This document shows positions 15,878 to 21,158 of a stretch of DNA of 64,000 nucleotides, in pieces; positions within the stretch are counted from its first letter, which is position 1, and each line of letters opens with the position of its first letter. Origin of the DNA: Candidatus Latescibacterota bacterium (GTDB taxonomy: Bacteria; Latescibacterota; UBA2968; GCA-2709665). Under the pieces are notes generated by a model. The model was not told where the DNA came from and ran no database searches. It saw nothing but the letters and a program-made list of their open reading frames with translations. The stretch covers positions 416,001-480,000 of the forward strand of contig CBDDDZ010000002.1 of assembly GCA_965226795.1 (NCBI GenBank). The letters are read 5' to 3'. The position numbers and the translations under genes were made by a program.

Positions 15878-18800
15878 ATGCCATTCGTGAGTTCCACACC
15901 AACTTTCCAGGAACTCATTCTCCGCCTCCAGCGATTCTGGGCGGATAACGGGTGTATCATCTGGCAGCCGCTGAGCGAAAAGGTGGGCGCAGGTACGTTG
16001 AACCCGAGCACCGCACTTCGCGTGCTCGGACCCGAGCCCTGGAAGGTAGCCTACGTTGAACCCAGCTTCCGTCCGGACGACGGCCGATTCGGAGAGAATC
16101 CGAACCGGATGCAGATGCATACGCAGTACCAGGTTGTTCTCAAACCCGAGCCAGGCAACCCCCAGGAACTCTACCTGGACAGCCTGGAAGCGTTGGGTCT
16201 GAATCGCCGGCAACACGACATCCGTTTCGTGGAAGACAACTGGGAATCGCCCGCGCTGGGCGCGTGGGGCCTGGGTTGGGAGGTCTGGCTGGACGGCCTG
16301 GAAATCACCCAGTTCACGTACTTCCAGCAGGCTGGAGGCCTGTCGCTCGATCCCGTGCCCGTGGAAATCACCTACGGCATGGAACGAATTGCCATGTATG
16401 TTCAGGACGTGCGCGAAGTCTGGCAACTCCGCTGGAATGAGCACGTCTCCTACGGGGACATTCTCAGGCAGCAGGAAGTGGAGTATTGCAACTACGAGTT
16501 CTTTTACGCAAACGTCAAGCGCCTGCAGACCATGTTCAATCTCTTCCTCGAGGAAGCCAGAGCCGCAATAGACCGCGATCTCGTCATTCCCGCACATGAC
16601 TACGTGTTACGGTGCTCTCACACGTTCAACCTTCTGGACACCCGGGGGGCCATCGGCGTTACCGAACGTGCGCGGTACTTCGCCCAAATCCGCGATCTGG
16701 CAAGACAGGTCGCCGAAGGCTTTGCCAGACAGCGCGAAGCATCCGGTCACCCCCTTATCACGAAAACCGAGGACGCGGCTGCCCCGCAACCGCGACGGGA
16801 CTTTGAATCTCTGGAGCGGGCCGACCTACTTCTGGAAATCGGATCCGAGGAACTTCCGCCCCACGACGTGCGGTCCGGCATCGAACAACTCGAAAGGCGC
16901 CTGCCCGAGCTTCTTCGGGAACAGAGGCTTGGATACGACGGCGTCGAAATTACGGGCACACCCAGACGGCTGGTCGCCAGCGTCAGGAACCTTGAGGGCC
17001 GGCAGCCGGACCAGGAACGCGAAGTGCGCGGACCGGCTGTCAAGGCCGCCTACGACGGCGAGGGAAAACCCACGCGCGCCCTTGAAGGATTCTGTCGCGG
17101 TCAGGGCATTTCTCCAGGTTCCGTGGAACACAGGAAAGACGACAAAGGCGTTGCATACGTCTACGCCCGGCGCCACGAGCCCGGACTTGAAACGCAGGAA
17201 ATCCTGACGGAACTCCTACCCAAACTGATTGCGGGCCTGAACTTCCCGAAAACGATGCGCTGGGACTCCGACGGATTCGCCTATCCCCGACCTATCCGAT
17301 GGATTGTCGCCCTTTTTGGAAACCAGATTATCCCGTTCCACTTCGCCCGGATCCGGAGTGGACGTACCAGCCACGGATCGAGGCCCGAAGGCGCCCCGCG
17401 CGTTCGGCTGGAATCTGCCGATAGGTATCATCTTCAAATGGAAGCACGCGGCCTGATCGTGAACCGCGGGCGGCGAAGAGAGGCTATCTGGAAACAGGTT
17501 CTCGAACAGGCGCGTCTGGTGGGTGGTAGCGTACAGGAAGATCCGGATCTACTCGACGAGGTTACCGACCTGGTCGAAGCGCCCTGCGCGTTGCGCGGCG
17601 GTTTCGATGAATCCCATCTTGAACTACCGGAGGAGGTCCTGGTCACGGTACTCAAGAAATACCAGCGCTACTTCCCTATAGTTCACCCGCAAACAGGCCG
17701 GCTTATGCCCTATTTCGTGGCCGTATCCAACGGCCGGTCGGCCGATTCCGGCCCCGTCATTCGCGGGAACGAGAATGTCGTTCGCGCCAGATATGCAGAT
17801 GCCGCCTTTTTCTACCGGGAAGATGGCCGAAAGCCCCTGGAAGACTACCTGCCGCGGTTGGATACGCTCACCTACCAGGAAGAGCTGGGCTCCGTGAGGG
17901 ACAAGAGCGAGCGAATCGAGCGACTGCTCACGGTCGTCGCCAACGATCTGGGTCTGACGGCATGCGGTACGAACACGGCGAAAAGAGCGGCCCGTCTTTG
18001 CAAAGCCGACCTGGCCACCGGTATGGTCGTCGAAATGACGGCCCTTCAGGGCGTGATGGGCCGCTACTACGCCTTGTTGTCCAACGAGACCGACGCAGTG
18101 GCCACGGCCATCCAGGAACATTATCTCCCCCGGTTTCCGCGCGATATGCTGCCGGCAAGCGAATCCGGTTTTGCGGTTTCCGTAGCCGACCGGCTGGACA
18201 GCCTGGCCGGCCTGTTCTGCGCTGGAATCAAGCCCCGGTCTACCGCCGATCCCTATGGGCTGCGAAGGGACGCGCTGGGCCTGCTGGCACTGCTTATCGG
18301 GAAACGGTGTCACTTCTCCCTTAAGAAGGGCCTCGAGGCCGCGGCAACGGGGTTGCCGATCCGAATCGATACCGATCGATTGAACGACGCTTACAAGTTC
18401 ATCCTGCGCCGCCTGGGCGTACAACTGAAAGAGGAAGGTTTTCGCCACGACGTGGTCGAGGCCACCCTTGCCGGCGGATGCGACGACCCTTTCGGGCTCC
18501 GCACCATTGTGGAGGGCCTCGATCGGATGGTACGTTCGGAAAACTGGACGGAAACGCTTCATGCATACGCACGGTGCAAGCGGATTGTTCGGATCCTCGA
18601 TGAAATCCATCCATTGAATCCGGACGCGGATCCAATCCCTTCCTCGCGCAGCTTACATCAGAATTGGGGGGACGCCCGCCGCAGCATGGACCGTTCGGAA
18701 GACAAGATCGACACCCTGGAAAAAGTGTTGGCCGACCTGCGCGAACCTATAAACAGCTTCTTCGAGGAAGTGCTGGTGATGGACGAAGATCCCGTGCTTC

Positions 18801-18883
18801 GCCGGGCCCGCCTGGCCCTGGTTCAGCGTATCGTCTCTCTCACGGACGGCATTGCGGACCTGAGCAGGCTGGAGGGGTTCTGA
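15878..18883 (+). CDS. glyQS: fused glycyl-tRNA synthetase alpha+beta (GlyQS)
   Basis: Alpha motifs ([27 protein letters not shown]) continue in frame into beta motifs ([28 protein letters not shown]); 1001 aa. Confidence 0.95.
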
Positions 18884-19030: not shown

Positions 19031-19612
19031 ATGCGCATCATCACGGGCAAACTCAAAGGCCGGACCATTCCGTTTGACGTCAGGAAACACGGCAACGCCC
19101 GCGTAACGCCGGGAAGGATCAAAGAGGCCGCATTCACGATTCTGGGCACCAGACTTGAACATCTTCATTTTCTCGACCTCTTTTCCTGTTCGGGCCAGAT
19201 CGGACTCGAGGCGTACAGCCGCGGCGCCAGGGTGCTTCTGAACGAACCGAATCGTGGCAGGCACGGCTTTATTTTAATGCTGTTGAAGGACTGGGGTTTG
19301 GAAAAACAGATACGCCTGCTGAATCAGCCCGCCGAGAGACTCCTGCCTCTGCTTGAGTCGGAACAACGGCTTTTTGACGTTATATACGCGGATCCGCCGT
19401 ACCTGCAACGACTGGACGACGTTCCGTTCGCCCTCGCCATGCTCATCCGTCTGAGCGGATCCGCCCTCGTTGCTCCATCGGGACATATCCTCATTCAACA
19501 CTTCGCAGGCCTGGAGTTGCCCGCCACCGTCCGGCATCTTTCATTGCGCATGCGTAAGACCTACGGCGTCACTTCGTTATCCATCTACCGAAAGGTGGGC
19601 CGAGGCCAGTAA
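19031..19612 (+). CDS. rsmD: 16S rRNA m2G966 methyltransferase RsmD family
   Basis: MRIITGKLKGR, LDLFSCSGQIGLEA-SRGA and ADPPY. Confidence 0.85.
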   Translation: MRIITGKLKGRTIPFDVRKHGNARVTPGRIKEAAFTILGTRLEHLHFLDLFSCSGQIGLEAYSRGARVLLNEPNRGRHGFILMLLKDWGLEKQIRLLNQPAERLLPLLESEQRLFDVIYADPPYLQRLDDVPFALAMLIRLSGSALVAPSGHILIQHFAGLELPATVRHLSLRMRKTYGVTSLSIYRKVGRGQ

Positions 19613-19633
19613 GCCCCTTTTCGAAATATCCAT

Positions 19634-19662
19634 TTGCTTTTGTACCCTGTTGCGTGTATTCT
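19634..19662 (+). promoter_or_regulatory. candidate sigma70-type promoter for the UGA-containing gene
   Basis: TTGCTT-17 bp-TATTCT about 40 bp upstream of ATG 19701. Confidence 0.4.
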
Positions 19663-19700
19663 TTTAACATCCAACCCCAATTCGGAAAGGAGCCGACCAC

Positions 19701-19979
19701 ATGAATACCATGCACGAGTCCATCGAATTCCGTCCCCGCGGGCGAACGCTTGCCATAGGCGGTATCCCCTGGCTGCCGCGGATTACGGACAAAGCCCGGG
19801 CAATGCTGCGGAACAACATCGGCGACTATATCTACCCCTGACCCGCCGACCAGAAGTTCCTGGAGGAACTCGGCATGCCGGCGGAAAAATTCACGCAAAT
19901 CGTTTCCGAATGTAAACTGGATGAGGAAGTCATCGAACGCGTCCGCCCTTATTACGAAAAGTCACAAAAGGTAAAATAG
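19701..19979 (+). CDS. DUF5069-like protein with in-frame UGA (codon 47), candidate selenoprotein
   Basis: AAAGGAG RBS then MNTMHESIEFRPRGRTLAIGGIPWLPRITDKARAMLRNNIGDYIYP[TGA]PADQKFLEELGMPAEKFTQIVSECKLDEEVIERVRPYYEKSQKVK*. Matches the recalled DUF5069 pattern GG..LPR..DKARA...GEYIYPCP.D, with TGA (19839-19841) at the Cys position. Absent from the ORF track. Confidence 0.75.
19845..19874 (+). promoter_or_regulatory. candidate bacterial SECIS element
   Basis: Upper stem AGTTCC (19855-60)/GGAACT (19865-70) with TGGA loop starting 19 nt after the UGA; lower stem GCCG/CGGC. Confidence 0.6.
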
Positions 19980-19987
19980 GAATATAA

Positions 19988-20014
19988 AAGCCGCCATGCG
20001 CTGCGTGGCGGCTT
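19988..20014. terminator. hairpin terminator after the UGA-containing gene
   Basis: AAGCCGCCATGC-GCT-GCGTGGCGGCTT inverted repeat between convergent genes. Confidence 0.6.
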
Positions 20015-20213
20015 CGCTCGTTTGTCTCCGAAAAATGCTTTCATCTCCCATCTCCCGATTTACGCCCCATAGAATCCGGCCTCCCGTCGCCGGTCGTCAG
20101 ACCCTGTCAAACCAACCTGGCATTCAAGCTCCTCTATATCAATCGACAACCGTTGCATTTCATCCACGCCGTCCTTCATCAGGCGTCCACCCAGATTCCT
20201 TCGCTGCATCGCG

Positions 20214-21158
20214 CTAGCACCTCCCGCCCTCCGGCAGGGCCTGCCGTGCCAGCGCACGAACTTCGCCGGACCCCATACGAAGCAACCCGTCGATTCCGAT
20301 CACGTCGGCCCCTAAGAGCTGCGGACATTCCTGGGCAGCCAAATCGTAAGCTTCCAGGACATCGTAATTTACACCTCTGTATCGGTAGAGATGGCCCAGG
20401 CTCTCCAGCTGTCCGCTTCGTCTGAGCGAATTCGTTACGCCCATCTTGAAATAATACAACTGCCGATCTCTCTTGTCTCCCCACCTCAACGTATCCGGCT
20501 CAGGGATATACGCCATCAACCTGTCCAGTTCCGCCTGGAAGGCCTCGATCTGGCCATCGACCATCTCCAGCAGCCCCCGAAGGACCTCCCTGCGAGCGGC
20601 TTCTTTTTCATCTTGAAGCATATCCTGTAGCACCAGCGCAGCCTTGCCGTAAAACACGTAACGTTCACGCTTCCCCTCTCCGAACAGATCCATTTCAATG
20701 GCTTCGGCTTTGCGCGCCAGCTCCTCCAGGTCAAGGTGGTCATCGCCCACACCGGCGTAGTCGTCATCCGCACGCGCCACCTGAATTCCCACCAGCAACG
20801 CCCGCTCGACAATCTGCATCATGTTTTCCGCCGGATCAAAAGCCCTGAGGTTCCGGGACTGTTCTTCATGGGCGCCCATTCCGCCGGCGCCGTGTGTAAA
20901 CCCCCGACTGACCAGTACCTGTTCCGCCTCTATCCCCAGGCGGACCAACAATTCGCGCAGCACGCCGCCCAATATCGGATGGCTTGCGGCCGGCAGGTAT
21001 TCCTCACGGCCTTCGGTCACCAAATCCGCCACTTCTGCCGCCAGTGCTTCGTCGCCCTCAGGATGCACCTCGCTTCTCAAACCCCTTCCACGTGTCAGGC
21101 TGAAAACAACCACGAGAATCAACAGGACAATCAGAACGACATAGACCATTTGCGGCAT
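20214..21158 (-). CDS. hypothetical membrane-anchored protein
   Basis: 314 aa ORF with GAGGGAG RBS, N-terminal hydrophobic helix and an acidic helical remainder; no family recognised. Confidence 0.7.
   Translation of the reverse strand: MPQMVYVVLIVLLILVVVFSLTRGRGLRSEVHPEGDEALAAEVADLVTEGREEYLPAASHPILGGVLRELLVRLGIEAEQVLVSRGFTHGAGGMGAHEEQSRNLRAFDPAENMMQIVERALLVGIQVARADDDYAGVGDDHLDLEELARKAEAIEMDLFGEGKRERYVFYGKAALVLQDMLQDEKEAARREVLRGLLEMVDGQIEAFQAELDRLMAYIPEPDTLRWGDKRDRQLYYFKMGVTNSLRRSGQLESLGHLYRYRGVNYDVLEAYDLAAQECPQLLGADVIGIDGLLRMGSGEVRALARQALPEGGRC

Follow-up and report, generated by a model that had tools for sequence, protein, structure and literature searches.

The stretch of Candidatus Latescibacterota DNA that was analysed (64,000 nucleotides, hereafter the window) carries a short gene of the DUF5069 family, flanked by an RsmD-like methyltransferase gene and a convergent gene (Table 1). 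The 92-codon frame of this gene contains one in-frame TGA, at codon 47 (positions 19839-19841), with 45 sense codons remaining downstream. An initial annotation had proposed that the gene was missed by the ORF caller and that its TGA specifies selenocysteine (Sec). Re-reading of the sequence upheld the frame, the single TGA, the number of codons beyond it, the peptide quoted from it and the ribosome-binding site; the mechanical ORF list does halt at the TGA, giving a 46-amino-acid product. A purine-rich ribosome-binding site is also found upstream of the start codon in the nine orthologous loci displayed. The proposed promoter is less well supported: a consensus scan of positions 19500-20250 yielded no promoter-like site, and a candidate picked by eye (19634-19662) fits 7 of 12 consensus bases. 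The proposed terminator corresponds to a real 12-bp hairpin 3' of the stop codon, but this structure has no U tract on the + strand and the same scanned interval yielded no terminator-like site. It is a possible terminator, likelier for the - strand or for both strands. Contigs assembled from RNA libraries of two of three studies stop at 19965 and 19970, a weak hint of termination at this hairpin.

Table 1. Features at and around the DUF5069 gene of the window.
Feature	Position	Strand	Remarks
RsmD-like methyltransferase gene	19031-19612	+	Upstream neighbour; PF03602, 102 bits; TIGR00095 below cut-off
Shine-Dalgarno sequence AAAGGAG	19686-19692	+	8 nt upstream of ATG; read in the sequence
Short-form DUF5069 gene, 92 aa, predicted Sec at residue 47	19701-19979	+	ATG start, TAG stop; PF16798 match
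Predicted bacterial SECIS	19855-19870	+	6-bp stem; 4-nt UGGA loop (19861-19864); 19 nt past the UGA
12-bp hairpin	19988-20014		3' of the stop codon, between the gene and the convergent gene; z -3.99; 1/200 shuffles as stable
Convergent 314-aa gene	20214-21158	-	N-terminal hydrophobic segment; no Pfam or NCBIfam match above cut-off

The RsmD-like gene adjoins the DUF5069 gene in about 21 of 83 loci, an arrangement local to this order, and is a neighbour lying outside the element. At about 14 loci, almost all within the same genus, the convergent gene is likewise retained next to the DUF5069 gene. Farther upstream (15878-18883), glyQ and glyS, identified from a reading of the sequence, appear to be fused in a single 1001-amino-acid ORF whose stop codon is a TGA. 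Contigs from four of four sequencing runs, belonging to four studies, span codon 47 and show the same TGA with no alternative letter; three of these runs are RNA libraries, the contigs of which are no proof of transcription, and the assembly itself may have been built from run X14. One RNA library (run X1, record 2) yielded a second contig, at about twice the depth of the contig of this genome. It carries a Poribacteria-type copy of the gene that resembles the window gene in DNA only around the UGA and the hairpin (window positions 19818-19869).

As the initial annotation had anticipated, the read-through product, with the TGA taken as Sec and scored as Cys, matches the Pfam DUF5069 profile (PF16798), with 55.6 bits against a cut-off of 27. 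Taken separately, the 5' half scores 24.0 bits and the 3' half 17.4 bits, neither reaching the cut-off, and the two halves match consecutive profile positions, 4-37 and 42-75. The full product spans only positions 4-74/77 of the 133 in the profile. When 1.84 billion representative proteins were searched, 372 matched; the best 150 of these, minus 11 WD40-repeat proteins, were used. Column 47 is covered by 129 of these 139 homologues and holds Cys in 109 of them, placing the UGA at the family's conserved Cys as had been claimed; Ser is found in 12 and A, G, N, T, P or W in the other 8. Among the remaining ten, nine proteins stop exactly at residue 46, as would be expected if gene callers took the UGA for a stop, and the tenth is limited to the 3' part. 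The databases list the Sec gene as a mis-called fragment of 45-90 amino acids, and the proteins printed with Cys are named "DUF5069 domain-containing protein" or "hypothetical protein". In a 92-row alignment, enriched in Cys rows through the selection of rows, Lys31 and Asp50 never vary, and conservation reaches 90% or more at Pro12, Leu25, Arg27, Asp30, Arg33 and column 47. The motif around the Sec reads Y-x-Y/F-P-U-x-x-D, with no CxxU, UxxC or UxxS/T motif.

When codon 47 was read in 106 distinct orthologous loci, it proved to be TGA in 86 and TGC or TGT in 20, and nowhere TAA, TAG or TGG. A full-length orthologue was found in 37 of 41 related genomes, with TGA in 35 and TGC in 2. Two- and three-repeat DUF5069 forms also occur in most of these 41 relatives. 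Within the genome's own phylum, matches at E <= 1e-10 were obtained in 123 of 168 genomes; the match contains a TGA in 104 of them, 15 have a stop-free orthologue and 4 a distant Cys form only. No match for this query was found in nine of ten small families of Latescibacterota outside the genome's own class. The gene is nearly universal among the Poribacteria (the phylum of locus L070), where 145 of 151 sampled genomes match and 140 have a TGA, bringing the TGA form to 244 genomes in two phyla. The initial annotation had named a nonsense mutation or read error confined to one strain as the finding that would go against it; this is countered by the TGA of the 35 orthologues, the two phyla and the agreement of all four runs. 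A plasmid search for the gene gave no match, and a metagenome scan that used a Cys homologue as query gave six loci with neighbours that, by eye, are unrelated.

On a tree built with column 47 set to X (108 rows, 88 columns), the Cys short forms are interleaved with the Sec forms, and the Sec/Cys label needs six changes, at least four of them forced by well-supported branches. The genome counts given above therefore represent few independent events, kin not being independent. Of the TGA genomes tested for selA, 59 of 60 have it; the exception (G018), 80% complete and in 820 contigs, has no match to selA or selB. The gene is also kept in 17 of 20 genomes with a Cys orthologue, the other three (86-93% complete) lacking selB as well. 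Thus, the switch between Sec and Cys is not simply tied to the machinery, and loss of the machinery was rejected as a general cause of the Cys forms.

The genome in question (5.41 Mb, 95.9% complete) contains selA, selB, selC and selD, the four genes that the initial annotation had wanted confirmed, all above curated cut-offs. The first three are clustered on one contig (C5) and selD lies on another (C4). At the default threshold, the only tRNA with a UCA anticodon is one of Sec type, situated beside selB, with the 8-bp acceptor stem and long variable arm that characterise the fold of Sec tRNAs. Both selD (G000:C4:335819) and fdhA, encoding the alpha subunit of formate dehydrogenase (G000:C5:1515570), have an in-frame TGA of their own, followed at a similar distance by a stem with a G-led loop; they are predicted to be further selenoprotein genes with SECIS-type hairpins. 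Elsewhere TGA acts as an ordinary stop codon, as previously stated for the window: glyQS ends in TGA at 18881-18883, and TGA terminates 537 of 1077 long open frames. Since it is the commonest stop after such frames, the genome is not recoded.

A consensus for bacterial SECIS elements specifies a loop of 3-9 nt with a G in the first two loop positions, a spacing of 16-37 nt from the UGA, a stem of 4-16 bp and a folding energy of <= -7.5 kcal/mol (PMC13188914). The hairpin following codon 47, a feature absent from the initial annotation, conforms to this consensus, with a loop of 4 nt with G at loop position 2, a spacing of 19 and a stem of 6 bp. Its calculated energies are -18.7 kcal/mol for 62 nt, -9.2 for 46 nt and -7.2 for the 30-nt core. 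At least five pairs together with a UGGA loop are found at 85 of 86 TGA loci and at none of the 20 Cys loci, in a count that leaves out duplicate loci and two long-form paralogues. In four Poribacteria loci with a one-codon insertion, the hairpin is shifted by 3 nt and intact, with a 7-bp stem. Codon usage across 65 TGA loci bears the mark of the structure. Inside the hairpin, Lys+5 is AAG in 36 of 36 cases, Phe+6 TTC in 63 of 65, Leu+7 CTG in 65 of 65, Glu+8 GAG in 64 of 64 and Glu+9 GAA in 59 of 59. Outside it, invariant residues are encoded more freely (Leu by CTG in 33 of 65, Lys by AAG and Phe by TTC in 44 of 65 each), and all six codons are in use for the upstream invariant Leu. Synonymous choice is frozen only within the hairpin.

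Covariation was scored in 61 distinct TGA rows. Pair 18-31 is G-C in 38 of these and C-G in 23, and the score was reached by 0 of 500 shuffles, all slid controls being lower. The switch from G-C to C-G probably reflects one or few events. No covariation signal was seen in 15 Cys rows (355 of 500 shuffles), where 75% of the cells still pair because the stem overlaps the conserved F-L-E-E codons. Taken as a single sequence, the hairpin has ordinary stability (z -1.38), a search of Rfam gave no match to a SECIS model (only three chance-level matches), and 464 of the 146,598 TGA triplets of the genome satisfy a loosely defined pattern of UGA plus hairpin, 180 of them with open frames. The case therefore rests on the comparison across genomes. 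The genome-wide scan with the loose pattern, considered as a list of the selenoproteome, was dropped as too unspecific. On the 3' side of the hairpin, third-position differences dominate among 15 genomes of the genus (981, versus 244 and 240 at the other two positions) and coding-type conservation persists beyond the TGA.

With high confidence, we regard the UGA at codon 47 as being read as Sec and the gene as an intact one for a 92-residue selenoprotein. In the proposed mechanism, SelB, bound to the hairpin 19 nt past this codon, would bring Sec-tRNA(Sec) to the UGA, and translation would continue to the TAG. It is highly improbable that the UGA is instead read as Trp through genome-wide recoding or as Cys by a UGA-reading tRNA-Cys, or that it is a regulated leaky stop. 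This could be argued from two database proteins, P0002 and P0315, that have Trp at the Sec position (their contigs measuring 652 and 714 nt) and from five weak UCA-anticodon candidates that a relaxed tRNA scan adds. However, P0002 matches TGA locus L077 at every residue except the Trp, which is thus most likely the gene caller's choice of code, and the Trp of both proteins probably arose because their short contigs were translated with UGA=Trp. The absence of TGG from all 106 orthologous loci, the identity of the sole default-threshold UCA tRNA as the Sec tRNA and the use of TGA to end 537 of the 1077 long frames, and glyQS, likewise speak against such a reading. A pseudogene or a sequencing error would account for the stop codon itself and for the database proteins truncated at the same point; this has a negligible chance of being correct given the same TGA in 244 genomes of two phyla, the four concordant runs, the coding-type conservation downstream and the lack of TAA or TAG at any of the 106 loci, and it was considered refuted by conservation.

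What the residue does was approached through structure and gene context. An AlphaFold2 model of the product (mean pLDDT 93.2) consists of four helices and one short hairpin; residue 47 comes immediately before helix 48-57. Within the PDB, the only clear relative by sequence or fold is entry 3OMD, deposited as an uncharacterised protein (Z 12.5, rmsd 2.3 over 85 aligned residues; Foldseek TM 0.78, rmsd 1.6). Fold searches returned no functional relative, the next Z after 3OMD being 4.5, although remote relatives may exist. The neighbouring genes, compared across loci, point to no common pathway. In family f4 they include two unnamed genes and one for a glycosyltransferase; in the loci of this family (L080-L118), many genomes have two conserved genes of about 126 and 344 amino acids, with no Pfam match, immediately upstream and in the same orientation. 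In most Poribacteria loci (L124-L153), the gene sits between a gene for a UPF0182 membrane protein (upstream) and pheA (downstream), all on one strand, an arrangement checked against Pfam on L067 and L070 only. A fusion of glutaredoxin and thioredoxin reductase is encoded directly upstream on the same strand at three close Poribacteria loci only (L067:1750-2976, L068 and L069). It is a possible candidate for the reductant, three loci being too few to use.

DUF5069 itself is a large family (at least 1,515 clusters). Elsewhere in the genome, a three-repeat paralogue of 431 amino acids (G000:C3:216487-217731, - strand; L120:1039-2334) has the Cys motif in its middle repeat alone, suggesting that DUF5069 domains work as an assembly; in the outer two repeats the motif is Ser-Gly-Leu-Asp, and two residues are inserted. 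The three-repeat gene is followed by one of the creatininase family.

Where a Cys or Sec stands at the N-terminus of a helix and basic residues are close by, it is activated as a nucleophile, and most positions held by Cys in some proteins and Sec in others are redox-active. Sec is generally found at positions of catalysis or metal binding; the UGA therefore points to the working residue of DUF5069. From the position at a helix N-terminus and the Cys/Sec alternation, seen against this general knowledge, a redox role with a single Sec was ranked first, metal binding second and a carrier role third. Given Sec at this position, the chances are slightly better than even that Sec47 serves as a redox nucleophile. 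Placed at the start of helix 48-57, within the U-x-x-D motif of a helical fold with invariant Arg27, Asp30 and Lys31, it would make a nucleophilic attack on a substrate that is either oxidised or electrophilic. It would then be recycled by an outside reductant, for example glutathione/glutaredoxin or thioredoxin, as no resolving Cys is conserved: 50 of the 86 Sec forms have no other Cys at all.

Sec recoding would also be compatible with Sec47 being a metal or metalloid ligand, possibly shared between subunits, in a sensor, chaperone or sink for Cu, Hg, As or Fe. The single conserved chalcogen with conserved Asp50, Asp30, Tyr43 and Tyr45 nearby, the tandem repeats of DUF5069 and the three-repeat paralogue with Cys in the middle repeat only are all in keeping with this idea, as is the listing of metal binding among predicted selenoprotein functions (PMC13188914). 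But neither a second Cys nor a His is conserved, the annotated neighbours include no metal-resistance genes and the title of 3OMD mentions no ligand. We put this role at about one chance in four. Still more doubtful is a covalent carrier of sulfur or selenium, or a suicide acceptor of alkyl groups or electrophiles. The small size, the single domain, the one reactive residue and the conserved basic residues of the protein would suit such a task, and DUF5069 is sporadically fused to a methyltransferase, a cupin or a HAD domain; these fusions, however, are rare and mutually unrelated, and no sulfur-transfer genes recur among the neighbours.

We tentatively propose, at somewhat less than an even chance, that DUF5069 represents a new fold for selenium-based catalysis. 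Its short Sec form would be a near-core single-copy enzyme of the Poribacteria and of the large Latescibacterota class to which this genome belongs, catalysing an undescribed one-Sec reaction. Repeated gain of Sec and SECIS is conceivable: in the tree, the C-G form of the hairpin that family f4 carries is placed above branches with Cys.

The mechanism of recoding is the known SelB/SECIS one; what appears new, in the sources covered, is DUF5069 as a selenoprotein family. The initial annotation did not count the family among established selenoproteins, and PF16798/DUF5069 is indeed absent from a 2026 table of 119 families (PMC13188914), which includes the families of Haft and Tolstoy 2025; in NCBIfam 20.0, no family was found up to E 1. 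DUF5069 is not named in the available main text of deep-Sep (PMC12013277), BSepDB (PMC13326102), SelCysML (PMC13745706) and PMC13582414, nor in that of the preprints 10.1101/2022.07.06.499078 and 10.64898/2026.09.15.751765, the latter of which has a figure covering "less-characterized" selenoproteins. A full-text search of the literature, covering few subscription journals, gave nothing on DUF5069, PF16798 or Latescibacterota selenoproteins. For selenoproteins and Poribacteria, it gave work on hydrogenases only and, for 3OMD, unrelated chemistry among the titles listed. It is thus fairly likely that DUF5069 as a selenoprotein family is unreported in print.

The finding would add to the selenium proteins an uncharacterised family with a solved but unexplained structure, and a fold new for Sec; it also makes the function of DUF5069 testable through one substitution. 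The TGA form is near-universal in Poribacteria (140 of 151) despite the mis-called database entries, and this phylum is described as a dominant sponge symbiont lineage (PMC3909097). Because every change to Cys goes with loss of the hairpin, the orthologues of the two kinds form a clean natural series for the upkeep of a SECIS inside coding sequence.

Among known systems, the gene comes closest to those read by SelB with an intragenic SECIS, for which the E. coli formate dehydrogenases are the model (PMC13188914). It shares with them the UGA at a Cys column, the presence of selABCD and the geometry of the hairpin. It differs from known SelB-dependent selenoproteins in belonging to a family outside the 119, in having neither a thioredoxin fold nor a CxxU/UxxC motif and in a hairpin that no Rfam model matches. 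Unlike the thioredoxin-fold selenoproteins, it has the Y-x-Y/F-P-U-x-x-D motif and a model of four helices plus a short hairpin. The 145-amino-acid protein of Leptospirillum rubarum in 3OMD, the only solved member of PF16798, has the same fold and the R-x-x-D-K and Y-x-Y-x-C-x-x-D motifs. Relative to it and to the other long forms of DUF5069 (about 145 amino acids), the window gene replaces the Cys by a predicted Sec codon and, with its 92 codons, stops short of the C-terminal part (profile positions about 78-133). Also close are the Cys-containing short forms of Latescibacterota and Poribacteria (e.g. MEW6750259.1 and MDP6776802.1), which have about 81-95 amino acids and are 53-73% identical, but which, in the 20 loci read at the DNA level, have TGC or TGT at the position of the TGA and have lost the hairpin, several of them with a relaxed F-L-E-E stretch.
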